Shown here: piece after piece, positions 11,411 to 37,920 of the stretch
Layout: each line of letters opens with the position of its first letter
How positions within the stretch are numbered: the first letter of the stretch is position 1
Assembly: GCA_023229825.1 (NCBI GenBank)
Contig: JALNYN010000005.1
Location: 1,933 to 65,932, forward strand
Length of the DNA stretch: 64,000 nt
Direction: 5' to 3'
Origin: Minisyncoccota bacterium
GTDB lineage: Bacteria > Patescibacteriota > Minisyncoccia > Phycocordibacterales > CAIJYI01
Position numbers and translations under genes: made by a program
Notes under the pieces: model-generated
What the model was told of the DNA's origin: nothing
Seen by the model: only the letters and a program-made list of their open reading frames with translations
Databases searched by the model: none

Positions 11411-11448
11411 GTCCCCTGATACTGATACTTTTCCCCGATACTTAAACT
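11411..11448. repeat. family-E repeat (cctgatactgatacttt motif)
   Basis: cccctgatactgatacttttccccgatactt; same motif at 49.18 kb and as an inverted pair at 53.96-54.04 kb. Confidence 0.45.
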
Positions 11449-12881
11449 TGGTGGCTTCTCGGGCGGCTTTCGTTCATTCCTTCGCCGGTGATGCGTACGA
11501 ACTCGGCTTTTTTCCAGAATTCTTTTATGTTGCGCGCTCCCGTATAGCTCATTCCCGATTGGAGACCGTCGAGCAGGCCCTGAAGGATTTTTCGCACTTC
11601 GCCTTTGAATGTGACGCGATAGCCGATGCCTTCGGGTGTTCGATCTTGGCGATCGGAATCTTTGTCGCCGCGCAAAACCATATCGATCGACGCGTCGCGC
11701 GATGCCAGTCCGCGATAGATCTTAAAGGCTTCGCCTCCTTCGATATAATATTCTCCCGGCGATTCTTTCGAACCGGAGAACAGATTGCCGATCATGACCG
11801 TTCCCGCGCCCGCTGCGATGGCTTTTGCCAGATCGCCGGAATTTTTTATGCCTCCATCCGCAATGATGGGGATCTTGAATTTATTCGCCGCTTTTGCGCA
11901 TTCAAGGACGGCGGTGAGCTGGGGAACTCCGGAACCGGCAACTATGCGGGTAGAGCAAGCTGCACCGGGACCGATGCCGATCTTTATCGCGTCAGCGCCC
12001 GCCCGTATGAGATCGATCGTTCCTTCCGCGGTGGCGACATTTCCGGCTACGATATCTATTGATGGAAATTTTTTCTTTAATTTTTTGACGAGATCAATGC
12101 AGGTATTATGATGTCCATGCGCAATATCAATGACGAGCGCATCCACGCCGGCGGCAACAAGAAGTTCTGCGCGTTCCATCCCGTCTTTTACTCCGATCGC
12201 TGCACCGACCAAGAGATGTCCGCGTTTATCTTTTGAAGCATGGGGACTTTCTTTTGTTTTCTTATAATCCGATGCTGTGATCAGCCCGGATAATTTCCCG
12301 TTCTTGTCGACGAGCGGCAGTTTTTCGATCTTATGCTTATCGAGGATCTCGAGCGCTTCAATGTTCCCGATATCGCGGTTCGCCGTGATCATTTTTTCTT
12401 TCGGGGTCATGAGCTTCATGACGGAAACGCTGAGATCGGTTTTAAAACGAATATCTCTCGCGGTAAGAATTCCGAGAATATCGCGTTCGGGGGAACACAC
12501 GATCACTCCGGTCACATGATTTTTCGCCATGAGGTCGAGTGCATCGCGCAAGGTCGCTTCTTTTCGGATGGTTATCGGATCATGAATGAAAAGGCTTTCC
12601 GCTCGTTTTACTCGGCGAACTTCATTAGCCTCCTCTTCCGCGCTTTGAAAACGGTGGATGATCCCCATGCCGCCTTCGCGAGCCATATGGATCGCCATTT
12701 CCGCGCCGGTCACGGTATCCATGTTTGCCGAAACGACCGGCACATTGAGTTTGATCCTTCGCGAGAACATGGTCGACAGATCTATCAGTTTGCGCGAAGG
12801 GATATCCGAATAATGCGGGACGAGAAGAACATCGTCGTACGAGAGAGCGAGGCGAAATGGTTCATTGGTTGTGTTTTTCAT
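11442..12881 (-). CDS. guaB: inosine-5'-monophosphate dehydrogenase with tandem CBS domains
   Basis: GGMGIIHR, catalytic Cys loop [14 protein letters not shown] pair; start taken at MKNTTNEPF (ORF track extends to 13007). Confidence 0.9.
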
Positions 12882-12988
12882 TCGTGAATTATAACGAATA
12901 TCCAGATTTGTGTCAAAAACTTCTTGGCTCGAGATGAATATGAAATAAAAAAATCCGACGAAATTTTCATTCGTCGGATACTCAGGTA

Positions 12989-13765
12989 TTACTTGCAGGC
13001 AGCGCACGGATATCTCTCGAGTTTATTATATCCGCCATCGTTGTTTTGCTTCCAAACATTGAATCGAAGAATTTTTCGATCCGGATGAGCCTTCATATTG
13101 AGGACGATGGAGGCGGAAACTCCCCAAACCAATTCATCGCCGTCCGGACCAAGCCATTTCATCGGGATCGGCTCCTTTGGCTCGTCTGCCTTGATAAGTT
13201 CGCTGACCAGGATCTGGATCGCCAGATCATGTCCGGTACTGATCCGATAAAGCGAATCGCGATTGTAACGCGGCGCTTCGAGGGCGGGAGGCGTATGCTG
13301 TTCCGGCAGCGGTTGTTCTTTCCCGTTAAGGGTTAAACGAAGGGGTTCCTTTTGTTTTAGCGGAACCTTTTTCAATTTTACCTCGCTACCTGCCGTCGGA
13401 CGTTCCGTATTGTATTGAACCGCATTTTCTCTTCGGATCTTAACGGTTGAGGCAAAACGATAGCGCGGTTTGTCGTCGCCCCATTCTTTGGAGTAGACAT
13501 AAAAATTCAATCCAAAGTCGGTTACCGGAAGATCCAAGGCTCCGGCTGACATTTCGTCCGTTAAAGATTCGATCATCTTCCAGCTTGTTTCGACAAGACC
13601 GTGAGAATCTTTCTCAAACTTTTTCGGAAGTCCAACGGCTTCCGTCGGATCTATTCTTGTGTGTCCAACGTTCATTTCGTAAATTTTTTCCGCCGATCTC
13701 GGATCGAGCGGCTGAAGATACCATTTTCGCCGTTTGAAACGGACGCGAGCGATTAATGCAGACAT
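12989..13765 (-). CDS. hypothetical protein
   Basis: 258-aa ORF, no recognised motifs. Confidence 0.4.
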   Translation of the reverse strand: MSALIARVRFKRRKWYLQPLDPRSAEKIYEMNVGHTRIDPTEAVGLPKKFEKDSHGLVETSWKMIESLTDEMSAGALDLPVTDFGLNFYVYSKEWGDDKPRYRFASTVKIRRENAVQYNTERPTAGSEVKLKKVPLKQKEPLRLTLNGKEQPLPEQHTPPALEAPRYNRDSLYRISTGHDLAIQILVSELIKADEPKEPIPMKWLGPDGDELVWGVSASIVLNMKAHPDRKILRFNVWKQNNDGGYNKLERYPCAACK

Positions 13766-13936
13766 CGATAATACCTCACGATTCGAGTGTTAAAAAGCAT
13801 TGTTTCTAATAAAAATTATATCATGTATGTTTAAAAATAGCAAGGCAGAGCCGGTTGACATAGGATGTTTTCGATGTAGTATCAATTTAGATTGCGTACT
13901 TTGAAAAATCGCCTCGTCGGGTGAAGGAGTTTGTTC

Positions 13937-14311
13937 ATGAACGAAATACAAAACGAACCGCAAAAGCAGGAAACAAAAACAGAACCGATTTGGGTCATTA
14001 AAGGATATTGCAAATCCTGCAAAAAATGCGTCTATGCCTGTCCGGCCGGAGTACTTTCGATGGCCGAGGTCAAAGAAGCGATACCTGGCTGTATGATCTC
14101 AGTCGATCGGCCCGATCTATGCATCGGATGCCGGCATTGCGAATACGCTTGTCCAGACCGCGCCATTTCGGTGGCGGAAAAAAATGAATTTCCTTTTGCG
14201 AAGAAAATAACGCCGGAAGCGAAAGAGCGCCAGACAAAAATACTGGCGAACGATTGCCAATCACTATCAACAGGAGAAAAAGATGAGAAAGCTGAAAGCG
14301 AACGGCAATGA
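13937..14311 (+). CDS. 2-oxoacid:ferredoxin oxidoreductase delta subunit (2x[4Fe-4S] ferredoxin)
   Basis: Two CxxCxxCxxxCP motifs (CKSCKKCVYACP, CIGCRHCEYACP); ATG preceded by GGAG; first gene of the D-A-B/G cluster. Confidence 0.75.
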   Translation: MNEIQNEPQKQETKTEPIWVIKGYCKSCKKCVYACPAGVLSMAEVKEAIPGCMISVDRPDLCIGCRHCEYACPDRAISVAEKNEFPFAKKITPEAKERQTKILANDCQSLSTGEKDEKAESERQ

Positions 14312-15419
14312 ACTTATCGCACTCGCGGCGGAAGATGCCGGATGTACGTTTTTTGCCGGTTACCCCATCACTCCTTCGTCGGAGGTGATGAGCATACTGT
14401 CGAAAAGATTTCCGCTCATTGAACGGAAATTCATTCAAATGGAAGACGAGATCGGCTCTATCTGTGCCGCGATCGGAGCATCGTTAACCGGAAAGAGATC
14501 CATGACGAACACGTCGGGACCCGGAATGTCGCTCAAAGCGGAACAGATCGGTCAGGCGCACATGGCGGAAATTCCGCTCGTTATCGTGAATGTCATGAGA
14601 GGAGGACCGGCAACGGGGCTTCCCACGCGAACTTCGCAAGGCGACGTGCTTCAATCGAGAGCGCCGACGCATGGAGATGTGAAGACGATCGTTCTCGCTC
14701 CGTCCACGACGTCCGAATGCTATACGGAAACCGTCCGAGCTTTCAATTTGGCTGAACGGTTCATGCAGCCGGTGATCTTATTATCGGATGAAACGCTCGC
14801 GCATACGTCGAGAGATGTTTTGATCCCCGATCTTTCGGAAATACAAAAAACGCTCGTGACGCGAAGAGTGAACTATCTCAGTGATTATCAGCCCTGCGAT
14901 GTCAAAGATGACGAACCGGCGATACTCAATCCGTTTTTCACGGGAAAGCCGTACCACATTACCGGACTTTTTCATGACAAAACCGATTTTCCGACGGAAA
15001 AGCCCGATCTGTGCCAGCAATTGATCGACCGCCAGTTCAGAAAGGTCGACAATCATCTGCGCGATATCGAAAAAGTTGAAAAATATCGGTATGACGATGC
15101 GGATTACCTTATTGTTTGTTACGGATCGGTATATTTGTCCGCGCGCGATGCGGCGGATACGCTTCGGAAAGAAGGTCTTCACGTCGGAATATTTTGTCCG
15201 AAAACATTATGGCCGAGTCCGGTGAAACGGCTCGAAGATGCATCAAAGAAGTTCGATGCTTCAAATATCCTGGTGGTGGAAATGAACAAAGGCCAATATC
15301 TGCGGGAAGTGGAACGCGCGATGGGAAAACGTCTGCCGTTCCTTTCCAAAGTGAACGGCCGATTATTCGAACCGCCGGAAATTATGAACAAGATTCGGGA
15401 GATGCATCATGGCGTATAA
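14283..15419 (+). CDS. 2-oxoacid:ferredoxin oxidoreductase alpha subunit
   Basis: POR/KOR alpha fold (AGYPITPSSEV..., GPATGLPTRTSQGD), 4-bp overlaps with flanking subunit genes. Confidence 0.85.
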   Translation: MRKLKANGNELIALAAEDAGCTFFAGYPITPSSEVMSILSKRFPLIERKFIQMEDEIGSICAAIGASLTGKRSMTNTSGPGMSLKAEQIGQAHMAEIPLVIVNVMRGGPATGLPTRTSQGDVLQSRAPTHGDVKTIVLAPSTTSECYTETVRAFNLAERFMQPVILLSDETLAHTSRDVLIPDLSEIQKTLVTRRVNYLSDYQPCDVKDDEPAILNPFFTGKPYHITGLFHDKTDFPTEKPDLCQQLIDRQFRKVDNHLRDIEKVEKYRYDDADYLIVCYGSVYLSARDAADTLRKEGLHVGIFCPKTLWPSPVKRLEDASKKFDASNILVVEMNKGQYLREVERAMGKRLPFLSKVNGRLFEPPEIMNKIREMHHGV

Positions 15420-16848
15420 TTACGATTCAAAATTAAGAAAGGAACGTCTGCCGACTCAATGGTGTCCGGGCTGCGGAAACGGAATAGTCTTGAATGCTAT
15501 TATCCGCGCTATGGACACCATGGGATGGAAAAAAGAAGATGTTTGCCTGGTCTCAGGTATCGGATGTTCCGGACGCATGAGTTCGTATATGGATTGTTTT
15601 ACTTTTCATTCGACGCACGGCCGTCCGGTCGCCTATGCCACCGGCATAAAATTCGCGGAACCGGAAAAACCCGTTATTGTGGTTTCCGGGGACGGCGATG
15701 GTCTCGCGATCGGCTTGAGCCATTTCCTGCACGGATGCCGAAGAAATATCGATCTGAAATATATTATCATCAATAACTTCATCTACGGTCTGACCAATTC
15801 TCAAGCGAGCCCAACGACTCCTCTCGGGATGTGGGCGGTCACTCAGCCGTTCGGAAACATCGAAAATACTTTTGATGCCTGCGATCTTGCCATTGCCGCG
15901 AAAGCAACCTTCGTCGCGCGAAGCACCACGCTCGATCTTCTCAGGTTGGAAAAAGTTCTTACTGCCGCCTTTCAACATAAAGGGTTCAGTTTTGTGGAGA
16001 TCCTTTCAGGGTGTCCGGTAAACTTCGGACGAAAGAACGACATGGGTGCTCCGAAAGAGATGGATGATTGGATAGGTTCGATCGGTGTGCCGAGCGCTCG
16101 GTGGCAAACGCTTTCCGAAGAAGAAAAAGAAGGGAAGTTCCCGGTCGGCATACTGAAACAAACCGCCGGCGCAAAAGAATATTGCGAAAAATATTCGGAA
16201 CATGTAAAAAAGATCCGAGAAGAAGATCATGGTACGGGAATTTTCTGTGAGACCATCGCGCCGGAAGATCAAGAGAACGAGGAGTGCGATTCCGTCAAAC
16301 GGCAATTTCGTTTTACCGGCGTCGGCGGACAAGGAATAATCTCCGCAGGAGAAATTCTTTGCGAAGCCATGATCAGATCGGGACTTCACTCTGCGACCAG
16401 TCTCGCGATGAATTCTCAAGTTCGAGGAGGTCCGACATCTCGCGATGTATTGTGCGATAAAAAGGAGATCAATTATCCGTACGCCATAAACGGCGAGATC
16501 GAATTCATGCTTTCCGTCGCCGACAGTTCCTATCAGATATACAAAAAAGGAGTCACGCCGGGCGGCATTATCGTGATAGATCCGAACCTTGTTCATGCAT
16601 CAAGCGATGATCGAAAAACGTGGAAAATTCTCGAAATACCGATCGTTGAGATCGCAAAAAAAGAGATCGGAAATATTGCGGCGCAATCGTCTATCGCTCT
16701 CGGCATTGCCGTTTCGATAACGAAATGCGTCAAGGAAGAAATTCTGTTGCAATCCATCACGGAAATGGTTCCGAAAAAATCGATACCAGCGAACATAAAA
16801 GCGTTCAAGCTCGGTATTGAATATGCGGAGAGAGTACTGAAAGAATAA
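15409..16848 (+). CDS. 2-oxoacid:ferredoxin oxidoreductase beta subunit fused to gamma subunit
   Basis: TPP-binding GDGDGLAIG...NN..YGLT in N-half; C-half FTGVGGQGIISAGEIL is the gamma-subunit signature. Confidence 0.8.
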   Translation: MAYNYDSKLRKERLPTQWCPGCGNGIVLNAIIRAMDTMGWKKEDVCLVSGIGCSGRMSSYMDCFTFHSTHGRPVAYATGIKFAEPEKPVIVVSGDGDGLAIGLSHFLHGCRRNIDLKYIIINNFIYGLTNSQASPTTPLGMWAVTQPFGNIENTFDACDLAIAAKATFVARSTTLDLLRLEKVLTAAFQHKGFSFVEILSGCPVNFGRKNDMGAPKEMDDWIGSIGVPSARWQTLSEEEKEGKFPVGILKQTAGAKEYCEKYSEHVKKIREEDHGTGIFCETIAPEDQENEECDSVKRQFRFTGVGGQGIISAGEILCEAMIRSGLHSATSLAMNSQVRGGPTSRDVLCDKKEINYPYAINGEIEFMLSVADSSYQIYKKGVTPGGIIVIDPNLVHASSDDRKTWKILEIPIVEIAKKEIGNIAAQSSIALGIAVSITKCVKEEILLQSITEMVPKKSIPANIKAFKLGIEYAERVLKE

Positions 16849-16862
16849 ATATTCTTTCACAA

Positions 16863-16895
16863 CAGCGGTGGCGGAAAGCCGCCGCTTTTTTTGAA
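16863..16895 (+). terminator. rho-independent terminator after the oxidoreductase operon
   Basis: agcggtggcggaaagccgccgct stem-loop + ttttttt. Confidence 0.75.
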
Positions 16896-16916
16896 CAAAA
16901 ATAATAATGCTTCCCA

Positions 16917-16954
16917 CGCCCTGCTGTAAATTCTAGCATATGCTAGAATTTACA
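16917..16954. repeat. 38-bp perfect palindrome ctgctgtaaattctagcatatgctagaatttacagcag
   Basis: Exact reverse-complement symmetry; the two halves equal the TIRs of the 7616-8102 element joined head-to-head. Confidence 0.6.
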
Positions 16955-16993
16955 GCAGGCATTTTTTTTATTTTATGTGCTATAATATCGGCT

Positions 16994-17365
16994 ATGGCGA
17001 AAATAAAACCACCTACACCACGCGAAAAACGCAAGGCCTACATTCAAGCTCGTTTGGCGTACTGGAATCAATTTTATGGTTTTTCTTGGAACCGCGTGAC
17101 GATCAAAAATATGCGATCACGTCTCGGAAGCTGTTCGTCGCTCCGCAATCTTAATTTCGCGTCGAAATTATTTTCCTATCCGCCGGAGGTGATCGATTAT
17201 GTGGTTGTTCATGAATTGTGCCATTTGAAAGAAATGAATCACTCCAAAAGATTTTATGATCTCATTGCGCAAACCATTCCCGACTGGAAAGAAAGAAAAG
17301 CGTCTCTGAAAAAACGAGACCTGAGAAAAAGTTTTTCCTTGTTTTTTAGCCGATTTAGACTATAA
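16994..17365 (+). CDS. YgjP-like metallopeptidase (DUF45/M48-like, HExxH)
   Basis: VVHELCHLKEMNHSKRFYDLI zinc-binding HExxH context; ORF-track start 16940 lies inside the palindrome, MAKIK start preferred. Confidence 0.6.
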   Translation: MAKIKPPTPREKRKAYIQARLAYWNQFYGFSWNRVTIKNMRSRLGSCSSLRNLNFASKLFSYPPEVIDYVVVHELCHLKEMNHSKRFYDLIAQTIPDWKERKASLKKRDLRKSFSLFFSRFRL

Positions 17366-17387
17366 TTCGGCAATACAAATAAATTCT

Positions 17388-18803
17388 ATGAATATACGAA
17401 AAACCAAGATCGTGGCGACGATCGGCCCGGCTTCATGCTCCGAGCGAGAGCTTACCGGAATGATCAACGCAGGAATGAATGTGGCGCGCCTGAATTTTTC
17501 TCACGGTTCGCACGAGGAGCACTCCGAGGTGATACGGACCATTCGCGACACATCGGAAAAATTGCATATTCCCGTTGCGATCCTTCAGGATCTGTCCGGA
17601 CCGAAGATACGGATCGGAAGTTTTGAAACTGAAACGGTTCATCTCAAAAAAGATGCGGAATTTACGCTGACCACCGAAGCGTTTGTCGGCAGCGAAGAAC
17701 GCGTTTACGTAAATTATAAAAATCTTCCCAAGGAAGTTTCCGAAGGTTCTCACATCATGCTCGATGACGGCAAGATAAAATTAAGGGTGCAATCAGTGAA
17801 GGGCGAAGATATTAAATGCATAGTGGTAAATGGCGGAACGATACGCGGCTCTCGCGGGGTGAATGTTCCGGGAACGAAACTTTCCATCGGCTGTCTGGGA
17901 AAAAAAGACAAAGACGATCTTTTGCTCGGTATCAGAGAGAAAGTCGATTTTGTCGCGCTGTCTTTCGTACAGTCGGCGGAAGATATCCGTCATCTTCGAA
18001 AAATACTGGATGAACATAATTCACGCATTGCCATTATCGCAAAGATCGAAACTGAGGAAGCGGTAAAAAATATTGATGAGATCATTGAAGTATCCGATGG
18101 CATCATGATCGCGAGAGGCGATCTCGCGGTTGAGATACCTGCGGAGGAGGTTCCTCTTGCACAGAAATTGATCATAAAGAAATCCATCATGGCGGGGAAG
18201 CCGGTTATCACCGCGACACAGATGCTCGATTCCATGATCCATTCGCCGGTACCGACGCGCGCGGAAGTGAGCGATGTTTCAAATGCGATCTTGGACGGAA
18301 CGGATGCGATCATGCTTTCAGGAGAAACGGCAACGGGAGATCATCCTGTCCTCACCATAGAAACTATGTCCCGTATTGCTCACCGGACGGAGGAAAGCGA
18401 GCTTTTTCAAGAAGAGGTTAAAAAATTCGTACGCATAACGAAGGGTGTAGCGGATTCTGTCAGTTTGTCTGTTGCCGTGACAGCCGCGAATATCGATGCG
18501 AAAGCGATCATTGCGCTTTCGGAAACCGGGTTCACTCCGCGAATGATCTCGCGCTATAAACCGAGACACCCGATCTTCGTTTTTACGCCGCACATCGAAA
18601 CGAGAAATCGGGCATTGCTCAGCTTTGGATGTTTTCCGGAACTCGGTCCGCATTTCACCGAGCTCTCCGAAGCGGCGGAACATGCGAAAAAATTTTTGAT
18701 ACATCGTAAAAATTTTAAAAAGGGAGATAAGTTCGTTCTCTGTGCCGGAATTCCTTTCGGAAAAAAAGGCAGTACGAATCTGATGCTGGCGCAAAGCATA
18801 TAA
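17388..18803 (+). CDS. pyk: pyruvate kinase
   Basis: KIVATIGPAS, NFSHG, MVARGDLAVEIP, C-terminal allosteric domain. Confidence 0.9.
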   Translation: MNIRKTKIVATIGPASCSERELTGMINAGMNVARLNFSHGSHEEHSEVIRTIRDTSEKLHIPVAILQDLSGPKIRIGSFETETVHLKKDAEFTLTTEAFVGSEERVYVNYKNLPKEVSEGSHIMLDDGKIKLRVQSVKGEDIKCIVVNGGTIRGSRGVNVPGTKLSIGCLGKKDKDDLLLGIREKVDFVALSFVQSAEDIRHLRKILDEHNSRIAIIAKIETEEAVKNIDEIIEVSDGIMIARGDLAVEIPAEEVPLAQKLIIKKSIMAGKPVITATQMLDSMIHSPVPTRAEVSDVSNAILDGTDAIMLSGETATGDHPVLTIETMSRIAHRTEESELFQEEVKKFVRITKGVADSVSLSVAVTAANIDAKAIIALSETGFTPRMISRYKPRHPIFVFTPHIETRNRALLSFGCFPELGPHFTELSEAAEHAKKFLIHRKNFKKGDKFVLCAGIPFGKKGSTNLMLAQSI

Positions 18804-18912
18804 AATTAAAAAAGGAAAAATGAAAAAGTAAAAACGACAATTAAAAATTAAAAAGTCCACCATCAACTGTCGTTACTTTTTAATTTTTCATTTTTACTTT
18901 TTAATTTGAAAC

Positions 18913-19143
18913 ATGTACATAAAGATCAAAGTCACACCTCATGCAAAAAAAGAAACCTTCGTGAAAATTTCCGAGGATCATTTTGAGGCATCGGTAAAGG
19001 AAAAAGCGGAGCGGAATATGGCAAATAACCGCGTTCGCGAATTGGTCGCGGAGCATTTTGGCATCCTCACCGGAAAAGCGAAACTTATTTCGGGACATCA
19101 TTCGCCGTCAAAAATTTTTTCTGTGGAAATTGATGAGGCGTAA
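18913..19143 (+). CDS. DUF167/YggU family protein
   Basis: 76 aa; KIKVTPHAKK...NRVRELVAEHFGI...LISGHHSPSK matches UPF0235 pattern. Confidence 0.6.
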   Translation: MYIKIKVTPHAKKETFVKISEDHFEASVKEKAERNMANNRVRELVAEHFGILTGKAKLISGHHSPSKIFSVEIDEA

Positions 19144-19217
19144 TTCAGCGATGTTTGTTATAATTATATAATTCACCTTACTCAGATTTTTAAAAATTGA
19201 CATAATTCGTTGTCGTC

Positions 19218-19325
19218 CGTTGCCCGACGGGGTTTGTAACCCCGTTGGAACGTTTGGAAATAACGATGAATGTGGTTTATTACAAACGTTTCGAACGGGG
19301 TCAGAGACCCGCGTCCGGCGGCTAT
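19218..19325. repeat. family-A palindromic repeat, copy 2 (intergenic)
   Basis: cccgacggggtttgtaaccccgttggaacgtttgg ... caaacgtttcgaacggggtcagagacccgcgtccggcgg. Confidence 0.55.
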
Positions 19326-19367
19326 AAAATTTCGTGAGTAAAGTGAATTATATAAAATATATTCATT

Positions 19368-20051
19368 ATGGTAAAAATAATTAAAACATTGCGCATCACG
19401 GCATGGATCTTGATCGCGCTCACGGCGCTGACCTTGCTTTCCGGATTTTTGTCGGTGAAACCATCGGCGCTTCCGTGGCTTCCAAAAGTGGATTCGTATT
19501 ATCTGCATGTCGTCGTATTGCCGCTTCTTTTTGTACCCATTATCTATCTTCATTCGCTCATGGGAATTTTGCTGTTCTTCTCTCGGAATCCGAAGTACGA
19601 TAAGGTACCGCTGAAATCCGCGGCGGCCGGTTTGTGGACGGCGCTTTTTATTCTTTTCGGTTTCTTATACTTTGTTCCAGCTGCCGTTCCGGAAGCGGTA
19701 AACTCGCCCGCTGCATCCGCACAAACCACTCTTGCCGCCGCAGAGATCGCCCGTCACAGTACCGCAAGCGATTGCTGGATAATTATCGGAGGTAAAGTCT
19801 ATGATGTCTCGGGGTACGCGACAGAGCATCCGGGTGGAGCGCAGAATATCGAATCGTTTTGCGGCAAAGATGGGACAGAGGCATTTGCTACGAAAGGGGA
19901 AAAAGGACAGCCTCACTCAGACAGTGCGCAGCAATTCCTGTCATCGATGTATCTCGGCGATATGGGATCGAACATCTCAAAAAGCGTTCTCGAAAAAGCT
20001 CGGTCTGTTCAGTTTCCGGTACAAAGTGAGGATGAGGGAGATGATGATTAA
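19368..20051 (+). CDS. membrane protein with C-terminal cytochrome b5-like heme-binding domain
   Basis: Three N-terminal TM helices; DCWIIIGGKVYDVSGYATEHPGG contains the classic HPGG heme-ligand motif. Confidence 0.65.
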   Translation: MVKIIKTLRITAWILIALTALTLLSGFLSVKPSALPWLPKVDSYYLHVVVLPLLFVPIIYLHSLMGILLFFSRNPKYDKVPLKSAAAGLWTALFILFGFLYFVPAAVPEAVNSPAASAQTTLAAAEIARHSTASDCWIIIGGKVYDVSGYATEHPGGAQNIESFCGKDGTEAFATKGEKGQPHSDSAQQFLSSMYLGDMGSNISKSVLEKARSVQFPVQSEDEGDDD

Positions 20052-20808: not shown

Positions 20809-21873
20809 ATGAAGAAAGAATCATGCTTTATCATTCGGCGCGAAGTTCTTTTTGATTGGGTGGAAACGCTCATGAAAGAAGAAAAAATTCTGGCACCTGT
20901 AGAAACAGACGACGGAAAATTCGCGTTTGAATTTCTGAACAAAGCGGAAGAAATTCGTCTCAATTATGATACGACCAATCTGCCGCCGACACAAAAGATC
21001 TTTATGCCGCAAGACGAAAAGGTCATCACTTGGAAAAAAGTGGACGGAAAAACGGTTTTTGGACCGGGCGACGGTCCGACACCGATGGTAGTCTTCGGCA
21101 TGCATCCGTACGATATCCACGCGATCAAAGTGTGGGATGACGTAATGGGTGAAAAACGAAACGCCTTGGCAGACCCTCAGTATCTTGCTCAAAGAGAAGT
21201 TACTGCGGTTATCGGTCTTGACGTTATCGTGCCTCCGCCAAATTCATTCTGCGAAAGTCTTGGTACGCACATTGCGACCGAGAACTACGACATTATGTTG
21301 ACGGACTTGTTCGACGGACGTTATTTCGTTGAAGTGGCGACACATCGCGGAATGTCATTATTCCTGTCGGTTTCAGATTTTGATGACGCCACCCCGAATG
21401 ATCACAAGCTTCGTCGATTGGTTCGCGAAGAGATCGCGACTCGTTATCCGGAAACTCTGCCGGTTCCCATAGGGGAACTGCACGAGTTTCTCGAAAAACG
21501 CATTCACCATCCTTATTTTGATGTCACCGGCGAACTTTGCGTGGCGTGCGCGAAATGCACATTTGTGTGCCCGACGTGTACCTGCTGCAACATAAAAGAA
21601 GAACCGGCATTGGACGGACAAAGCGGCTGTCGAGTGCGCGAATGCGATTCTTGCCAATTGCCGGGATTTACCAAAATGGCCGGCGGCGTGATCGCTCGGA
21701 AATCTCCGGGCGCGAGAGTGCGTCATCGCATTCTTGATAAATTCGATTATCATCACGGCTGTGCTGCATCGTGTGTCGGTTGCGGAAGATGCGTTCGCGC
21801 TTGTCCTGCAGATATTGCCGATCCGATAAAAGCGCTTAACCTATTGAGAGACGAGGAGGTTCCTCATGAGTAA
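20809..21873 (+). CDS. hydB: [NiFe]-hydrogenase (group 3b/sulfhydrogenase-type) beta subunit, iron-sulfur protein
   Basis: CVACAKCTFVCPTCTCC and CVGCGRCVRACP cluster motifs; AsrA/HydB-like; start at MKKES preceded by GGAGG (ORF track starts 20719). Confidence 0.75.
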   Translation: MKKESCFIIRREVLFDWVETLMKEEKILAPVETDDGKFAFEFLNKAEEIRLNYDTTNLPPTQKIFMPQDEKVITWKKVDGKTVFGPGDGPTPMVVFGMHPYDIHAIKVWDDVMGEKRNALADPQYLAQREVTAVIGLDVIVPPPNSFCESLGTHIATENYDIMLTDLFDGRYFVEVATHRGMSLFLSVSDFDDATPNDHKLRRLVREEIATRYPETLPVPIGELHEFLEKRIHHPYFDVTGELCVACAKCTFVCPTCTCCNIKEEPALDGQSGCRVRECDSCQLPGFTKMAGGVIARKSPGARVRHRILDKFDYHHGCAASCVGCGRCVRACPADIADPIKALNLLRDEEVPHE

Positions 21874-22741
21874 TTGTGAAAATCAATATCTCTATGTTCC
21901 GAGAACTGCACGGATCCTCGAAATTGAGGAACTGACAGATAAGGAAAAGAGATTCTTGCTGAAATTTGATAACGGTACAGAAATCGGTCCCGGAGAGTTC
22001 GTGGCCGTATATGCGCCGGGTATCGGTGAAGCGCCGATATCGCTCTGTTCATCTCCTTTTGACAAAGAAACATTTGAGATCGCTGTGCGAAGGATCGACC
22101 CTCCGGAAGGAAGGCACGATGAAGCATACGTCCAAACGCTGATGAACGTCACGACCTATATTCACACGAAAAAGGTCGGCGACACTCTGGATATCCGCGG
22201 TCCGTTCGGACGCGAATTTCCGGTTCATGAATTGAAAGGAAAAAACATTGCCGTCATCGTCGGCGGTATCGGTCTCTTTCCGGGGGTAAGACCTCTGCGA
22301 GAGATCGCTAAAACGAGGGAAGATTTCAAAAAGGTATTCGTGCTCTTCGGAACACGCTCACCTGCTGAAAGATACTTCCCACGGCTGCTTGATGAATGGA
22401 CCGAATCCAAGATCTTTGATGTTCGCGAAGCCTATGAAAGGCTGGCGAACGGAGAAAAAGGCGGTTTCGTTACGGGCGTTCTTGATGCGATCGAAGGTTG
22501 CAAACCGGAAGATACGGCGGTCTATATCGTCGGCCCTTCCGTCATGTTCAAGCCCGTTATGGCGACTCTGGAAAAATATAATCTTTTCGATGAAAATGTT
22601 TATTTTTCGCTGGAACGTCAGATGCGTTGCTGCGTCGGACGCTGCGGACATTGTCGTATCAATGACGTGCTCACTTGCGTCGACGGACCCGTATTTTCGC
22701 TGAAAGAGATCAAAGACAGACGTCTTTGGGAGGCATTATAA
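21866..22741 (+). CDS. hydG: hydrogenase gamma subunit (FNR-like FAD/NAD(P)-binding, C-terminal 2Fe-2S)
   Basis: Ferredoxin-reductase-type FAD/NAD fold (GGIGLFP), C-terminal CCVGRCGHCRINDVLTC cluster motif; overlaps hydB by 8 nt. Confidence 0.8.
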   Translation: MSNCENQYLYVPRTARILEIEELTDKEKRFLLKFDNGTEIGPGEFVAVYAPGIGEAPISLCSSPFDKETFEIAVRRIDPPEGRHDEAYVQTLMNVTTYIHTKKVGDTLDIRGPFGREFPVHELKGKNIAVIVGGIGLFPGVRPLREIAKTREDFKKVFVLFGTRSPAERYFPRLLDEWTESKIFDVREAYERLANGEKGGFVTGVLDAIEGCKPEDTAVYIVGPSVMFKPVMATLEKYNLFDENVYFSLERQMRCCVGRCGHCRINDVLTCVDGPVFSLKEIKDRRLWEAL

Positions 22742-23541
22742 TGAGTAAGTTGGAAGAATATACCCTTCGCGCGAAGCGCGGAGATAAGCCGACGCTCGTC
22801 TATGCCGAGCTCGGAAGCTGTGACGGATGTTCGATGGTCATCGTCAACTTGGACGGAACGTTGCTTGACTTGAATAATGTTTTCGATATCAAGCAAATGC
22901 GTATCGCCATCAGAGGCGTTTACGACGGTCCGATCGATGTACTGATGGTTGAAGGCGCGGTAACGTGTGAGGAAGAAGCGGAAGAACTCCGTGAATTTCG
23001 CGCTCGTGCCGATTATGTTATCGCTGTTGGGGCGTGTGCCGAGCTGGGAGGAATTCCGGGGATGGCGCCTCCATTTGCGGTGAAGCGGGCTCAAGAAGGA
23101 AAATTCGGAGCTCACGTACAGGGACAACGGCCCATAGCGCCGCGTCCGGTCGCTGAGATCATTAAAGTCGATGCCGTTATCCACGGCTGTCCGATCACCA
23201 CGGCAGATGCTGTGCGGGCGATCAGAATTATCCTCGCAGGCGGAAGACCGGATTATACCGATCGTCCTGTTTGTGCGGAATGCGTGTTGCAGGATAACGG
23301 TTGTCTGTTGTTCGAAGGTCGTGCATGTCTTGGTGCGGTAACGCGCGCCGGATGTAATGCCTATTGTCCGTCGAACGGAGGTTTCTGCTGGGCTTGCCGC
23401 GGATTGCTTCCCGACGCTCCTCTCAATGCTTTGTATAATGTGGCGAAGGTCCATGATATACCGCAAGCGGAGGTCGACAGAAAATTACGAATGGCTAATC
23501 AACGCCATTTCACTCTGATTGAAGAAAAGGAGAAGAAATAA
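22741..23541 (+). CDS. hydD: [NiFe]-hydrogenase small (delta) subunit
   Basis: NuoB-like GSCDGCSM proximal-cluster motif; TAATG overlap with hydG stop; start MSKLEE (ORF track starts 22675). Confidence 0.85.
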   Translation: MSKLEEYTLRAKRGDKPTLVYAELGSCDGCSMVIVNLDGTLLDLNNVFDIKQMRIAIRGVYDGPIDVLMVEGAVTCEEEAEELREFRARADYVIAVGACAELGGIPGMAPPFAVKRAQEGKFGAHVQGQRPIAPRPVAEIIKVDAVIHGCPITTADAVRAIRIILAGGRPDYTDRPVCAECVLQDNGCLLFEGRACLGAVTRAGCNAYCPSNGGFCWACRGLLPDAPLNALYNVAKVHDIPQAEVDRKLRMANQRHFTLIEEKEKK

Positions 23542-25448
23542 TGTTTAACAACATTCTAAAACATCCGCTTCTTCATGCCGGCAACCACGAAATTGGAGCC
23601 AGTGTTGGAGGAAGCGGCGGAACAAATTCCAGAGCCATTGCGAGAAAAAATATCCCGATGGTCGAAGGAAAGATGTCATTTGAAGTCATTCAAAGAGTGG
23701 ACGGAAAATTCGACGTCAATTTGATCGTTGAAGAACCGCTGCGCCACTTTGAAGCGATCTGCGAAGGCAAGTCATGGGAAGAAGTTCCTATTATTGTATC
23801 GCGGATCTGCGGAGTTTGTCCTTTCCCATATGCCCTTGCTGCTTCAAAAGGAGCTGAACGCGCATTCGGGATCAAGGTATCCGACCAGACGCATCGTCTG
23901 CGTGAGATCGCACTCTACGGAAATATGTTCAACAGTCACGTGCTTCACGCGCTTGACCTCGTATTGCCAAGATTGCTTCACGTAAACAGCATTATTGAAT
24001 TTGCTGTGGCGACACCGGAAAACACCGCACTCGCGGCAAAATTGCTCGGACTTCATACTCTTGGCAACGACTTGGCTCGATTGGTCGGCGGACGGGAAGT
24101 CCACTCGATCACGATCACTCCCGGGTACATGACCGCAATTCCAAAAACGGAAGAATTGAAAGCCGTTCGCGACAGATTGGCAAATGCTCACGAAACATAT
24201 GATGTTCTCGTAAAAGTGTTTGCCGATGTTTCTGCGGGCTCAAATCCAAAACTGCCGATTCGTGAACGCGAGTTCATCGCATTGCGCGGCGATACAAAAT
24301 ATCCGTTTTACGGCAGTCTCATCGGTTCATCTAAACGCGGAACGATGACGCCGGAAGAGTTCGAACAATACAAACACGAATACGTGGTTGATAATTCGAA
24401 CTCAAAGCAAGTGCATACCGATGAGAGCGATTCTTACATGGTGGGTGCGCTGGCACGACTCAATATCAACAGCGATCTGATCTGTGAAGAAGCTAAAAAA
24501 GACATGGAAACCCTCGGGCTTTCATTGCCGAATTACGATCCATACATGAACACCGCCGCTCAATTGGTGGAAGGCCGTCAAGTTCTCATCGACGCGGTAA
24601 AAGCGATCGATGAATTATTGGCGATCGGATTGAAAAAAGAAAAACGTCCTCGCATCGTTCCTCGTGAAGGATATGGGGCGGGTTATCTCGAAGCTCCGCG
24701 CGGCATGATCTGGCATGAATATCGTTATGATAAAAATGGCTTGGTTACTTGGGCGAACTGCATCATTCCGACAGGGATGAATACCGGCAGTATGCAGGAA
24801 GACTTGGAACATTTTTCCGAACATCTTCTCGGCGAAGCTCATGCAAGCGATGAAGAGATCGGATATGATCTCGACTTATTGCTTGCTCATTATGACCCAT
24901 GCAATTCTTGCGCGGTGCACGTCGTGCGTTTAGGTTCCAAAAATGAACCAAAAATAACACTTGCACGGGATGCAAAAGTTGCGGTCGTTTCTATCGGCAA
25001 TACGCTTGCCGGAGATGACGCGGTCGGTAATGTTGTGGTGGAGGAAATAAAACATCATGGTGTAGAGGGAAACGTCGATTACATTCATGGCGGAGTCAGC
25101 GGCCTCACGATCTTGGAAGATCTGGCGGCAGAAAAGTACGACGCGATATATTTTATTGATGCCGTTGACGGACTTTCTCGAGTCGGGGAAGTGATAAAAT
25201 TAACCGGAGAAGAACTGCTTGAAAAAGCGCAAGAGTCAGAACCGGCTTTATCTCTTCACCAAGGCGACTTCACTCATGCTTTCAGGTTGGCAAGAGCCGT
25301 TAAGCTCGAGGTGCCTGAAAAAGTTTTGTTCTTTGGCATACAGGTCGGACAAACCGAAGTCGGTATGGGTCTGACGGCAGAGATAGATACTCATGAAATT
25401 GCTCACGCAATAATCCATGAGATCGAGGATGATCTATATAGCAAATAA
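23541..25448 (+). CDS. hydA: [NiFe]-hydrogenase large (alpha) subunit fused to C-terminal HycI/HybD-type maturation endopeptidase domain
   Basis: L1 motif RICGVCPF, L2 motif DPCNSCAVH near residue 460, then a ~170-aa domain with GNTLAGDDAVG and HQGDF (protease signatures). Confidence 0.85.
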   Translation: MFNNILKHPLLHAGNHEIGASVGGSGGTNSRAIARKNIPMVEGKMSFEVIQRVDGKFDVNLIVEEPLRHFEAICEGKSWEEVPIIVSRICGVCPFPYALAASKGAERAFGIKVSDQTHRLREIALYGNMFNSHVLHALDLVLPRLLHVNSIIEFAVATPENTALAAKLLGLHTLGNDLARLVGGREVHSITITPGYMTAIPKTEELKAVRDRLANAHETYDVLVKVFADVSAGSNPKLPIREREFIALRGDTKYPFYGSLIGSSKRGTMTPEEFEQYKHEYVVDNSNSKQVHTDESDSYMVGALARLNINSDLICEEAKKDMETLGLSLPNYDPYMNTAAQLVEGRQVLIDAVKAIDELLAIGLKKEKRPRIVPREGYGAGYLEAPRGMIWHEYRYDKNGLVTWANCIIPTGMNTGSMQEDLEHFSEHLLGEAHASDEEIGYDLDLLLAHYDPCNSCAVHVVRLGSKNEPKITLARDAKVAVVSIGNTLAGDDAVGNVVVEEIKHHGVEGNVDYIHGGVSGLTILEDLAAEKYDAIYFIDAVDGLSRVGEVIKLTGEELLEKAQESEPALSLHQGDFTHAFRLARAVKLEVPEKVLFFGIQVGQTEVGMGLTAEIDTHEIAHAIIHEIEDDLYSK

Positions 25449-33726: not shown

Positions 33727-36700
33727 ATGTATCAAAAATTCCAAGCTAAGCCTATTCACCACAAGGTCTTTTTTCTCGTGATTGCGGCTACCGTTCTTTT
33801 AAGCTCTGTTTTTGCCGGAATTTTGTATGCACAAAAAACGCTCGCCTCCTTAAATCCCGCTCCGTCGAATTTTATTCCAAACGATCCCTTCCAAATAAAA
33901 GGAGAAACCTCCGGCATCGACAAACATTTTGCCATCACCGATAGTGAATACCTGAACATCACCCTTGATAGTACCGAAAACATCGACCTCAAACTCGTTT
34001 CGCGTCCGAAAGTGATTACCATGATGTTCGAGGCGACCACAACAGCCCAAACAACTCAAATCACTATCTCCAATTTGGCAAAAGACACCACGTACTACAA
34101 ATACGAAGACGATTATCACAATCTCACACAATTCACTACCGACTCGAACGGAAGCTACACCTTCTCCCAAGATATTTCCACCCGCCACTTTGTATTCATC
34201 CAAACCAGAAAAAGCACCAAATTCATCGCTGACAACGCCACAGGAGGAGATTGTACCACGATCGGAACATGGGAAAGCACAACCAAAACCTGTACCCTAA
34301 CGCAAGACCTGACGGAAACCATACAGATCGACAGCGACGGCATCACACTCGACGGGAACGGACATAGCATATTGATCACTCCTGAGTATTCATCTGGCGG
34401 GGTGTATCTCTATGACAAAACGGGGGTTACCGTAAAGAACGTTACCATAAACGGATCACATAGCGGGGTTAGTATTAGCGGGGGAAGCAACAACCGCGTC
34501 GAAAATAGTACTTTTGTGGGTAACACCGGCGGTATTGGTATCAGATACGGCAACAACAATATCATTTCGAACAATACCCTCATTGGCACCGGTATTACTG
34601 TTACTTTTAGCAAAGACAATATTATTGAGTACAATACCGCTAATGATAATGATTATAACGGAATTTCTACTACGCTTTCTTCCGGAACCATTATCAGAAA
34701 CAATACTCTAAATAACAATAGGGTCAGCGGAATATATATTTATGATTCGCAGTTCAATGATCAGATCATTGATAATACTGCCCAAGAAAATGGATACCAA
34801 GATATCGTGCCATTCGGAGCAGAATCACACATACTTAAGTGCTATGATACGATAAGAGGAAATATCGGTTCGGGAGGCTATCCGATCGGATATTTCAGCA
34901 CTTCAACCACTTTAACTTCCGGCACATTCTCAGAACTCATCCTCTGCAACGCTGATCACTCCACTATACGCAACGTAAGAGTGCAAGGCTCTGCAGATAA
35001 GAAAAACGGTATTTTTTTGATAGCTCTCACGAATGATTCAAAATTCGAAAACATCAGCGTTACCAACTCGAACGGATTGCATATTTTGTTTTCCGACCGG
35101 AACGAGGTCGCCGGAGGAATGATGGATTCGAATCGGTACGGTATTACTCTGACGAATGCACATGATAACAGGATCCATGAAAACACGATCTCAAACAGCG
35201 AGACGAGCGCTCTTCGCTTTTTTGTGAAACAATCTTCCGACAATACCATTTACAACAATAATTTTATTAACAACATTTCTCTTTCTTTGGGGGATGGAAC
35301 TTCCAATATTTTTGATCTCCCAAAACCAATTGGGGGAAATTACTGGGACAGTTATCATACTACTGCACAAGGTTGCAACGATACAGATAACGATGGTTTC
35401 TGTGATGCGCCGTATGTTTTTGGAAATGGCGTGCAGGATAACATTCCGTGGACAACACAGGACGGATGGAAAAATGTTTCCGAAAAAACTTTGCAATACG
35501 GTTCCGTTTGGGAGGACGATCTCATTCAAGACCGAAGGGGAGGAGCGAACAAAACCAATTTCTTATTCAAAGTCGTGTATACCGACACGACCGCTTCAAC
35601 GCCGCACATCAGGCTTGTATTCTCCGGTCCGCAGGGAGAGATCAAACTCGGCATGGCTCCGGATACTTCCACCACAACCCCTCTCGAATATCACGACGGC
35701 AATCTCGCCAACGGCGAAGCATTTTCCCGAACCTTAACCTTCCCGAAAGGAACGTATCATTACCATTTCGAAACGGAAGACGGAACGGTAAAGCTGGAAA
35801 ACTCGGAGTATATATTTATGACCGGGTACAGCAATGTGGCGTTTATTCCCGGGTTGGAAGCTTCACGGCTCTTCAGACCCATTGTGGGAGGAGGCGCGCA
35901 GTTATGGCTTCCTGGCGCCAGTGCGCACGCAACAAAACTTTACCTCTCAAGCACAACAGGTGAAAGTTTGGATCCGTCTATTTATGTTTCAGGTGTGGTA
36001 AAAACGGCATATGGGGTAAGTATATATCAGAGTTTTCTTGATAAAATAGAGGAAATGAAAACCTCCGGCGACATAGAGCGCTTTGAAACTTTCCCTTATG
36101 ATTGGCGCAAGTATCAGCCGAACGCCGCCACTCAATTAGTGTCAACGGGACCGAACGGAGAATTTTACTCAATGATCGATCGGATCAAAGAAATGGCCGA
36201 TTCTTCACCAACGGGGAAGGTTGCTATAATCACTCATTCAAACGGCGGGCTTGTGGCAAAAGAATTGGCGGATGCGTTAAAACAACAAGGCAAAGCCAAT
36301 GATATTGAAAAGATTATCATGGTTGCCGCTCCGGAACTTGGAACTCCAAAAGCCATACTCGAAATGCTCCATGGAGCTGAACCATTCCTATTAGGCATAC
36401 CAAACAAAGAGACGACCCGCGAACTCGCCGAAAACATGAAAAGCGCATACTCGCTCTTACCGTCCCGTGAATATTTCAACCGACTTGGTACGCCTCTCCG
36501 CCCGCTTGTTGAATTCAGTACGACAACACAGGCAACTTTATCTTTCAGAAACATTTATGGAAATGATATATCGGATTACGATAATTTGCGCAAATTCTTG
36601 CGCGGTGAAAATGGAATAAGAAAAGAACCAGATCCGAGCGTAGTGAATGAGCCGAACGTACTTAAAGAGAATTTTCTTTCAGATGCGGAAGAACTTCACT

Positions 36701-37920
36701 TGAGACAGGATAATTGGACACCGCCGATCGGGGTGGAGGTCGTTCAAATAATCGGCTGGGGATTGGATACTCCGCATGGCGTGCTGTACACAAAAGCGCG
36801 CAAGCAAAAGACGGTATGCAATGCCGATCTTTCAGTTTGTACTAAAACAGACGTCATTGATCCGCAGCCGCTTAAGACTACTATAGAGGGTGATGGTACG
36901 GTGCAGTATGTTTCTGCTGAGGCGATGGGAGGGGAGAAATACTGGGTGGATATGACCCAACATAATGCATGGTGGCAGTATAATATAAACCGCGACCACA
37001 AAAATATTCTTGAAATCGGTTCACTTCAAACACTACTCGCTACTCTAATAAAGAACCAATCAACAAGTACTTTTCCTGAATATATAACAAATGTAAAACC
37101 GATTCCGCCAACAGTCGACAAACGCCTCCGCATCAGTGCACACTCTCCCGTTTCGCTCCATCTCTACGATTCATTCGGAAAACATACGGGAATTATCCCG
37201 AACCCTGATCTGCAATCTGATTTTGATTTTGTCGAGGAACAAATTCTCAACAGCTACTATTGGCGAATTGGAGAAGGACAGTATACCGGAGTAGGAGCTG
37301 AAGCGACCACGACTATCGTATTGAAAGGAAAAGAAACTGGAACATTCACTCTTGAAATTCAAGAAGTTGTCGGCGGAGAAAACGCTGAAAAAACATTTTT
37401 CCAAAATATCCCCACCACGGCAAGTACCACCGCGACCGTGCAGGTTGGAGAAAATGTGATATCACTGCTCGCTGTTGACCTCGATGGCAACGGAACGATA
37501 GATGCTGAATTTTCGGCAAATGACAATGGAATGATAAGCGATCCCCTCGCATATCTTTCACTTATGAAGAAAACCGTTTCTTCTTTCTCCCTCAAAAAAC
37601 AAACCGAAAAACAGATTTTAACAGACCTTTCTCTGATCGAAAAAACTCTGGAGAACTTTATCAAACTGGACGACAAAACGAAGAAAATTTATGAAAAGCT
37701 CGATTCTAAAATTCGAAACGAAAAATTGAGAGAAAAGTGGAAAGAGTGGAGGGACAAGCATCTTATTCAAAGGAATACGCTTGAAGATAAAATATTGTTC
37801 AATCTGGTAGAGAATGCGGAGAAAAATGTTATTCGACTGAGAAAACAGAAAGAAATATCCATAGACCAAGCGGATATATTATTTACTATGCTTGAGGAGT
37901 TAAAAAGTTTAATTAAATGA
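33727..37920 (+). CDS. giant secreted/anchored protein: right-handed beta-helix (NosD/pectate-lyase-like) + alpha/beta-hydrolase (lipase/PGAP1-like) + Ca-binding-like DxDGNGxID module + coiled-coil tail
   Basis: Signal/anchor VFFLVIAATVLLSS; long series of NxTxxGN beta-helix repeats, GGNYWDSYHT...CNDTDNDGFCD; IITHSNGGLVA nucleophile-elbow-like motif; VDLDGNGTIDAEF; Lys/Glu-rich C-terminus. Confidence 0.7.
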   Translation: MYQKFQAKPIHHKVFFLVIAATVLLSSVFAGILYAQKTLASLNPAPSNFIPNDPFQIKGETSGIDKHFAITDSEYLNITLDSTENIDLKLVSRPKVITMMFEATTTAQTTQITISNLAKDTTYYKYEDDYHNLTQFTTDSNGSYTFSQDISTRHFVFIQTRKSTKFIADNATGGDCTTIGTWESTTKTCTLTQDLTETIQIDSDGITLDGNGHSILITPEYSSGGVYLYDKTGVTVKNVTINGSHSGVSISGGSNNRVENSTFVGNTGGIGIRYGNNNIISNNTLIGTGITVTFSKDNIIEYNTANDNDYNGISTTLSSGTIIRNNTLNNNRVSGIYIYDSQFNDQIIDNTAQENGYQDIVPFGAESHILKCYDTIRGNIGSGGYPIGYFSTSTTLTSGTFSELILCNADHSTIRNVRVQGSADKKNGIFLIALTNDSKFENISVTNSNGLHILFSDRNEVAGGMMDSNRYGITLTNAHDNRIHENTISNSETSALRFFVKQSSDNTIYNNNFINNISLSLGDGTSNIFDLPKPIGGNYWDSYHTTAQGCNDTDNDGFCDAPYVFGNGVQDNIPWTTQDGWKNVSEKTLQYGSVWEDDLIQDRRGGANKTNFLFKVVYTDTTASTPHIRLVFSGPQGEIKLGMAPDTSTTTPLEYHDGNLANGEAFSRTLTFPKGTYHYHFETEDGTVKLENSEYIFMTGYSNVAFIPGLEASRLFRPIVGGGAQLWLPGASAHATKLYLSSTTGESLDPSIYVSGVVKTAYGVSIYQSFLDKIEEMKTSGDIERFETFPYDWRKYQPNAATQLVSTGPNGEFYSMIDRIKEMADSSPTGKVAIITHSNGGLVAKELADALKQQGKANDIEKIIMVAAPELGTPKAILEMLHGAEPFLLGIPNKETTRELAENMKSAYSLLPSREYFNRLGTPLRPLVEFSTTTQATLSFRNIYGNDISDYDNLRKFLRGENGIRKEPDPSVVNEPNVLKENFLSDAEELHLRQDNWTPPIGVEVVQIIGWGLDTPHGVLYTKARKQKTVCNADLSVCTKTDVIDPQPLKTTIEGDGTVQYVSAEAMGGEKYWVDMTQHNAWWQYNINRDHKNILEIGSLQTLLATLIKNQSTSTFPEYITNVKPIPPTVDKRLRISAHSPVSLHLYDSFGKHTGIIPNPDLQSDFDFVEEQILNSYYWRIGEGQYTGVGAEATTTIVLKGKETGTFTLEIQEVVGGENAEKTFFQNIPTTASTTATVQVGENVISLLAVDLDGNGTIDAEFSANDNGMISDPLAYLSLMKKTVSSFSLKKQTEKQILTDLSLIEKTLENFIKLDDKTKKIYEKLDSKIRNEKLREKWKEWRDKHLIQRNTLEDKILFNLVENAEKNVIRLRKQKEISIDQADILFTMLEELKSLIK

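Follow-up and report, generated by a model that had tools for sequence, protein, structure and literature searches.

The catalytic large subunit of [NiFe]-hydrogenases and the maturation endopeptidase that acts on it both belong to well-known protein families, and the functional relation between them is textbook knowledge. The endopeptidase, whose cleavage after the His/Arg of DPCxxCxx(H/R) depends on nickel, is usually a free-standing protein of ~150-200 amino acids with its own gene; Escherichia coli HybD and HycI and their archaeal homologues (PDB 1cfz, 2kml, 5ttx, 5zby), for example, are free proteins of 150-170 amino acids that act in trans. The sulfhydrogenases SHI of Pyrococcus furiosus and Hyh of Thermococcus kodakarensis likewise have a separate protease, and the C-terminal extension of their large subunit is four residues long. 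Glu16, Asp62, and His93 of HybD have been proposed as metal-binding residues, with the nickel of the substrate serving as the recognition element (PMC2670836). Recognition by the protease depends on nickel and on the main body of the large subunit, not on the C-terminal peptide, which tolerates exchange of its sequence; loss of the extension goes along with a change of known enzymes to a compact, closed form (PMC6769069). Here we analyze a 64,000-nucleotide stretch of DNA from a Minisyncoccota bacterium (GCA_023229825.1, contig JALNYN010000005.1, positions 1,933 to 65,932, forward strand; hereafter the window), in which a [NiFe]-hydrogenase large subunit and a HybD/HycI-type endopeptidase are encoded by a single open reading frame (ORF).

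A large subunit and an endopeptidase in one reading frame

The fused ORF appears in the ORF listing at window positions 23541-25448 of the + strand and runs uninterrupted from an ATG start to a TAA stop, encoding 635 amino acids (69.8 kDa). An AAGGAG Shine-Dalgarno (SD) sequence lies 8 nucleotides 5′ of the ATG, and the start overlaps the stop of the small-subunit gene by 1 nucleotide. The protein has four parts, all encoded on the + strand: an N-terminal extension (residues 1-35; 23541-23645), a [NiFe] large-subunit core (residues 36-460; 23646-24920), a linker (residues 461-479; 24921-24977), and the endopeptidase domain (residues 480-635; 24978-25445). The motifs DPCNSCAVH, GNTLAGDDAVG, DAVDGL, and HQGDF fall at residues 452-460, 486-496, 540-545, and 573-577, respectively. 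Pfam detected PF00374 (NiFeSe_Hases) and PF01750 (HycI) in the one chain, both above their gathering scores. A sequence-only reading of this DNA had claimed that a large subunit and a complete maturation endopeptidase share one polypeptide, and the single ORF with both domains above curated thresholds bears this out. An AlphaFold2 (AF2) model of the whole protein has a mean predicted local distance difference test (pLDDT) score of 86 and a predicted template modelling score (pTM) of 0.71. At a probability of roughly 60%, we consider the ORF to encode a self-contained precursor of the catalytic subunit of a cytoplasmic, group-3b-like, NAD(P)-linked [NiFe]-hydrogenase that carries its cognate endopeptidase as its C-terminal "extension".

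Residues 36/38-464 match the NCBIfam sulfhydrogenase alpha models ShyA (E = 4e-61) and HydA (E = 1e-53), with scores that miss the equivalog cut-offs (207 vs. 700 bits and 183 vs. 880 bits, respectively). In the AF2 model, pLDDT is mostly >90 over residues 70-450, and Foldseek aligned the model with P. furiosus SHI alpha (9nez_D and 9nf0_H) with E-values down to 8e-34 and target-normalised TM-scores of 0.90-0.93 (0.93 against 9nez_D). The protein thus shares the fold of SHI and Hyh, with about 29% sequence identity. The Ni/Fe-coordinating cysteines are C90 and C93 in RICGVCPFPY (residues 88-97, nucleotides 23802-23831), both invariant in the clade, and C454 and C457 in DPCNSCAVH460 (nucleotides 24894-24920); D452, C454, C457, and H460 are invariant among 62 aligned sequences. 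In contrast to ordinary 3b proteins (P0012 and P0017), in which the first motif (L1) reads RICGICS(L/I)GH, the canonical L1 His is missing, Y97 being aligned in its place. Tyr97 is kept in all clade members, and Pro94 and Pro96 replace small residues of the usual motif. By these comparisons, the fused large subunit is a member of a divergent clade of the Candidate Phyla Radiation (CPR) type and not an equivalog of the Pyrococcus enzymes. Given that L1 deviates and that the scores lie far below the equivalog cut-offs, hydrogenase activity is predicted only. Distinct CPR-specific 3b clades have been reported in a study that mentions neither the protease nor maturation (PMC7304191).

The N-terminal extension, which SHI and Hyh also lack, carries an L-x-H-x-G-x-H-type motif, reading LLHAGNHE here (residues 10-17), LLHAGHHEVGDGHGG in P0004-P0006, and His-rich HAGHEHGAGGGHTHDHDH in the unfused relative P0011. 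In the alignment it is present in fused and unfused clade members and absent from ordinary group 3b subunits. AF2 predicted it to be disordered (pLDDT <50 for residues 1-27). Its reality had been doubted on first reading; conservation across the clade, together with the SD sequence and the ATG at 23541, establishes that it is real. The extension might bind nickel.

The C-terminal domain matches TIGR00072 (hydrogenase maturation protease) over residues 482-617 (profile positions 2-132 of 145) with 84.3 bits against a cut-off of 47.45, and PF01750 with 41.5 against a gathering score of 23. A profile built from 144 stand-alone proteases matched residues 482-637 of the stop-to-stop ORF with E = 2e-41; that ORF begins 6 codons upstream, and the match corresponds to about residues 476-631 of the protein. 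Homology to HybD, HycI, and their archaeal homologues extends over the whole domain and includes the GN...(D/E) and (D/H)GG motifs. In phmmer alignments with 1cfz and 2kml, N10...E16 of HybD corresponds to N487...D493, D62 to D540, and H93 to H573, placing the putative metal ligands at nucleotides 25017-25019, 25158-25160, and 25257-25259 of the + strand. The alignment that could have revealed a domain without metal ligands thus found all three in place. AF2 predicted a b-a-b-a-b-b-a-a-b-a order of strands and helices, with pLDDT of 70-90, which is compatible with an alpha/beta fold around a central five-stranded sheet. Unlike the free enzymes, this domain forms the C-terminus of the very protein that it presumably cleaves. 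Such an arrangement is uncommon: among the best 150 representatives (50% identity) matching the protease domain, 144 are shorter than 215 amino acids, and three, P0002, P0009, and P0134, are full-length fusions. The protease profile detected no second protease-like ORF in the window or in the fused loci.

Homologues, selection, and origin of the fusion

An identical 635-residue protein is encoded on a 78-kb ENA contig and in an independent Logan assembly, and is also found in JGI and NCBI. GenBank holds it under two accessions, MCK9351550.1 and MFA6493517.1, named [quoted passage not shown], an organism name that current NCBI taxonomy places in the phylum Minisyncoccota. The product name mentions the protease only, so that the catalytic subunit may be overlooked or mislabelled in hydrogenase surveys based on product names.

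Seven further clusters at 90% identity contain PF00374 and PF01750 in one chain: P0002-P0007, which are 80-49% identical to the window protein, and P0009, at 38%. A word-indexed protein search with the protease domain alone returned two fragments and was replaced by an exhaustive search of 1.84 billion representatives, which added P0134 (724 amino acids). In all, eight further full-length fused homologues (P0002-P0007, P0009, and P0134) span 81-33% identity; the fusion is conserved in a limited group of very small, uncultured Paceibacterota, which belong to the CPR. C90, C93, C454, C457, H460, D493, D540, and H573 are invariant in all nine full-length fused proteins. A beta-gamma-delta-(alpha+protease) operon is present at every fused locus fetched (L004, L005/L006, L007/L008, and L009), and the fused proteins whose locus was read are P0002/L009, P0006, P0007, and P0009. 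We calculated the ratio of nonsynonymous to synonymous substitution rates (dN/dS) against two relatives; with dS near saturation, the values are approximate. The large subunit gave 0.05-0.09, the protease domain 0.10-0.12, and the linker 0.29-0.75. By this measure, the protease domain is under purifying selection and the linker is relaxed.

P0009 and P0134 (L004 3666-5651) form a second fused subclade, in which the second cysteine motif (L2) is the variant HPD(L/F)CCSCAVH with an extra Cys. Their tails are His-rich (NEHDHHGHS..., HGHTAHQ...) and Cys-terminated, and P0007 ends in HAHHHED.

The closest unfused relatives are P0010, on the Logan SRR14126291 locus L003 (51% identical), and the protein at L010, from a "Candidatus Saccharibacteria" metagenome-assembled genome (MAG; 44%). 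They belong to the same divergent 3b-like clade and have the N-terminal His extension, RICGVCPFPY, and the same operon, which is followed by a separate HycI-family gene of 160 amino acids (P0125 at L003). The junction in both reads ...AVH(V/M)(V/T)RLKH-TAA-GGAG...-ATG, and the protease ORF follows in the same frame, separated from the large subunit by one TAA and three codons. Given this arrangement of the sister genes, the comparison shows the fusion to be a stop-loss merger of neighboring, translationally coupled genes, whose former SD sequence and ATG have since been replaced by linker.

Two peptide patterns specific to the clade were also used to scan 185,579 GTDB species representatives. 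Matches extended into the protease half of the query at L009, L010, L024, L035, L036, L041, L051, L052, L061, L081, and L085, and inspection of their ORFs identified only L009 (81% identical) as truly fused among these eleven loci. At nine of the ten others, the large-subunit ORF extends only 6-26 residues past the conserved His, and the protease-half match is a separate downstream ORF; at L061, the ORF scan picked an unrelated ORF and was uninformative. The survey of related genomes for fused versus separate genes that had been proposed for this locus yields both, with P0002-P0007, P0009, and P0134 fused and L003 and L010 unfused. A neighbor-joining (NJ) tree of large subunits, without bootstrap, interleaves unfused P0008, P0010, L010, and P0011 with the fused sequences, and an NJ tree of proteases, also without bootstrap, groups the fused domains together.

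Other large subunits end exactly at the His of DPCxxCxxH, with no tail (L019, L021, L026-L033, L039, L040, L044, L045, and L058). These 3b-like or 3-type proteins come from Archaeoglobi, Armatimonadota, and other archaeal MAGs and, having no extension, are presumably protease-independent. They and the fusion both dispense with a separate protease gene, but the fusion keeps processing and hard-wires the enzyme to its substrate.

Linker, predicted cleavage site, and proposed maturation

The junction in the window reads ...DPCNSCAVH460-VVRL-GSKNEPKITLARDAK-VAVVSIGN.... After VVRL, 15 further residues precede the first protease strand, for a linker of 19 residues in total (VVRLGSKNEPKITLARDAK). 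Its first four residues are identical to the complete extension that the P. furiosus SHI alpha precursor naturally carries at its C-terminus, a chain deposited both as 428 amino acids ending in ...DPCISCSVHVVRL and as 424 amino acids ending at the His; the HVVRL context, and with it the DPCxSCxVH|VVRL terminus, is the same in the two proteins. Seven of the nine fused proteins have a linker of 19-20 amino acids; that of P0007 has 38 and that of P0134 about 30. Compared with P0004, it is the least conserved part of the protein, with 52% identity against 80% for the large subunit and 70% for the protease. In the AF2 model, pLDDT falls below 50 exactly at residues 461-470, between two folded domains. 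H460 is invariant, and the H|V/F cleavage context is kept across proteins down to 33% identity. From these features, the likeliest cleavage site is the bond H460|V461 (nucleotides 24918-24923, + strand), which the tethered domain would cut after nickel insertion. We estimate that a disordered tether of at least 19 residues, which could span up to about 60 Å if stretched out, is more than long enough for this bond to reach the active site of a ~35 Å domain whose first strand starts at residue 480.

Maturation may proceed as follows. HypCDEF, encoded 30 kb downstream, would deliver Fe(CN)2CO, after which nickel would be inserted. Through its D493/D540/H573 site, the tethered protease domain would then engage the nickel-loaded active-site region and cut after H460 (...CAVH|VVRL). 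The products would be the mature large subunit (residues 1-460; 51.0 kDa) and the protease, now free (18.9 kDa). The mature subunit would close around the cofactor and assemble with the delta, beta, and gamma subunits, and the released domain may or may not act in trans later. In a reduced genome, the fusion would ensure 1:1 stoichiometry and co-localization of protease and substrate. Given the very high local concentration and the flexible tether of at least 19 residues, the first cut is most probably intramolecular (cis); autoproteolytic maturation in cis is plausible from the disordered, variable tether of 19-38 residues and the conserved cleavage site. Single-turnover action, which had been thought to be implied by the fusion, does not follow, because the first cleavage would free an intact HybD-like domain, able in principle to process further precursors in trans. 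Given that the protease disregards the sequence of the C-terminal peptide, a bulky extension at this end is expected to be tolerated, and both the exchangeability of that peptide and the closure on its removal fit a precursor with a whole removable domain (PMC6769069).

A cis-acting protease joined to its own cleavage site and freed by the cut is familiar from polyproteins, as in the alphavirus capsid protease, an analogy without homology. In the present protein, unlike in that system, the scissile bond precedes the protease in the chain, and the cut would be expected only once metal has entered the substrate domain.

Since the sister genes are adjacent, in frame, and one stop codon apart, a single base error could mimic a fusion, and a sequencing or assembly error, a frameshift, a missed stop, or translation of the protease from an internal start might each be invoked. 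We regard such an artefact as scarcely credible: the same ORF occurs in independent assemblies and in two GenBank submissions, and eight diverged homologues from different samples are fused through stop-free linkers that differ in sequence and length. The window linker moreover exceeds the sister junction (KH-stop-GGV-MNAQ) in length, bears no relation to it in sequence, and has lost the SD sequence and ATG. The earlier assertion that the fusion is no read-through product holds for the same reasons. No in-frame SD sequence with a start codon precedes residue 480 of the fused ORF, which led us to reject an internal start for a separate protease. An alternative genetic code or stop read-through was also considered and rejected, as the fused ORFs contain no stop and the unfused sisters use TAA.

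If the fusion is accepted, the manner of processing can still be read in different ways. Processing might be intermolecular, the domain of one precursor or a freed domain cleaving others, with the fusion serving co-expression, stoichiometry, and gene economy. The domain released by any first cleavage would be an intact 18.9-kDa HybD-like protein, the stand-alone proteases of sister lineages work in trans, and the model, with its pTM of 0.71, offers no confident intramolecular docking pose. On the other hand, a flexible tether of 19-38 residues gives a local concentration that normally favors an intramolecular reaction, and a linker of about 19-20 amino acids has been retained in seven of the nine fused proteins; we consider trans processing rather unlikely, though the strongest of the competing explanations. 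It is distinctly improbable that the C-terminal domain stays in place as a pseudo-protease with a lasting structural or chaperone-like role in the hydrogenase. Stable large-subunit/protease complexes described for Salmonella (PMC5299533) and the 3b-like large subunits whose chain stops at the conserved His, leaving nothing to be processed (L019, L021, and L026-L033), would agree with such a role; the three metal ligands and the H|V/F context are nevertheless invariant down to 33% identity, a dN/dS of about 0.1 fits a retained enzymatic function, and removal of the extension is tied to the compact, closed form in known enzymes (PMC6769069). A bolder possibility, which we think improbable, is a self-contained module in which a strictly cis, nickel-gated, one-shot protease is combined with the His extension (LLHAGxHE...) as a nickel-acquisition tail replacing HypA/HypB. 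This minimal form of maturation is left open by the His extension, the L1 Tyr, the hypA and hypB genes not seen at the loci, a HypC-HypD fusion, and duplicated hyp sets; if true, a CPR lineage would mature a [NiFe]-hydrogenase with only HypCDEF and the structural polypeptide.

A self-contained precursor cleaved by its own C-terminal endopeptidase remains our preferred interpretation, and several points weigh against it. The L1 motif is non-canonical (RICGVCPFPY, with Tyr97) and the ShyA score is 207 vs. 700 bits, so that the enzyme is divergent and its activity a prediction. Cleavage itself is an inference. At a pTM of 0.71 the relative placement of the domains is uncertain, and cis and trans processing are computationally indistinguishable here. 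Finally, the NJ trees conflict on whether the fused proteins form one clade and do not decide between one and two fusion events.

Genomic context and significance

The large subunit is encoded in an operon with the delta subunit and AsrA/AsrB-like beta and gamma diaphorase subunits, in the same order as in L003-L010 and with the same subunit content as in the operons for SHI and Hyh; all genes lie on the + strand. The beta subunit (20809-21873) is HydB/ShyB-like with a Fer4_22 4Fe-4S domain (ShyB, 1.5e-49; HydB, 4e-48). Its ORF could start farther upstream, at a TTG at 20719, and the gene call at L001 is 7269-8333 (window offset +13540). The gamma subunit (21866-22741) is FAD/NAD(P)-binding and HydG/ShyC/AsrB-like (PRK08345, 2.2e-50; NAD_binding_1 and DHODB_Fe-S_bind). 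The delta, or small, subunit (22741-23541 by gene call) belongs to Oxidored_q6 (HydD, 1.1e-40; ShyD, 8.8e-40), and its ORF stays open back to a possible TTG start at 22675.

Genes for cofactor assembly lie farther downstream on the same strand: hypF, for the carbamoyltransferase of the CN ligands (55675-58146; acylphosphatase, zf-HYPF, Sua5, and HypF_C domains), hypC (58168-58395; PF01455, 1.3e-17), hypD (58398-59552; PF01924, 7e-140), and hypE (59549-60592; AIRS and AIRS_C), the last of which follows hypD as in L004 and L005. Clusters of hypF, hypC, hypD, and hypE also accompany the fused hydrogenase at L004 (5796-15174) and L005 (15185-19988). Neither hypA nor hypB was found in the 64-kb window (by Pfam scans of ~55 ORFs and a CxxC/P-loop screen) or in the related loci examined, a result that does not extend to the whole genome. 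L004, which encodes the fused homologue P0009, contains a HypC-HypD fusion of 452 amino acids (8159-9517; PF01455 and PF01924), adjoined by a second, separate hypF/E/D/C set (10720-15174).

Directly upstream of the operon, positions 13931-20051 encode a 2x[4Fe-4S] ferredoxin, pyruvate kinase, a membrane-anchored cytochrome b5-like protein, and a two-subunit 2-oxoacid:ferredoxin oxidoreductase (POR_N/PFOR_II and TPP_enzyme_C/POR). Together with the hydrogenase operon, this region looks like a compact fermentative pyruvate-to-H2 module. After hypE, the segment 60904-63957 has a GC content of 0.37-0.38, against about 0.46 elsewhere, and encodes an AAA_15/AAA_21 (OLD/AbiEii-like) ATPase, a 168-amino acid protein that matches no Pfam family, and an IS200-like Y1 transposase. 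Short contigs of two other samples (L089 and L090) carry all three, which suggests a mobile or defense element. A protein of 1397 amino acids with repeated NosD/beta-helix domains and an LCAT-like lipase domain (33727-37920) is probably a large surface protein.

A natural fusion of a large subunit to its protease was not described in the literature that we searched, which included a 2025 review of [NiFe] cofactor assembly and two papers on CPR hydrogenases, with incomplete coverage. When the PDB was searched with either half, it yielded large subunits and free proteases, and no protease-precursor complex. The PF00374 and PF01750 domain pair is visible in precomputed Pfam annotations; the covalent arrangement is thus apparently new, present in databases yet undescribed and mis-named. 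The finding corrects the GenBank annotation of a 635-amino acid catalytic subunit.

The fusion is unlikely to overturn anything, and its value is that of a directly exploitable natural construct. How the endopeptidase recognizes a nickel-loaded large subunit and catalyzes its cleavage is still unsettled in the field, and a natural covalent 1:1 fusion from a mesophilic organism provides an experimental handle on protease-precursor recognition. Mutation of a metal ligand, as in H573A, should arrest the enzyme on its substrate for study by cryo-EM or crystallography, and the fusion would let cis and trans kinetics be measured. The fused design could also ease heterologous production of [NiFe]-hydrogenases, with no need for protease matching. 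For the organisms themselves, the fusion, like the HypC-HypD fusion in the related locus, shows reduced-genome CPR bacteria consolidating maturation functions.

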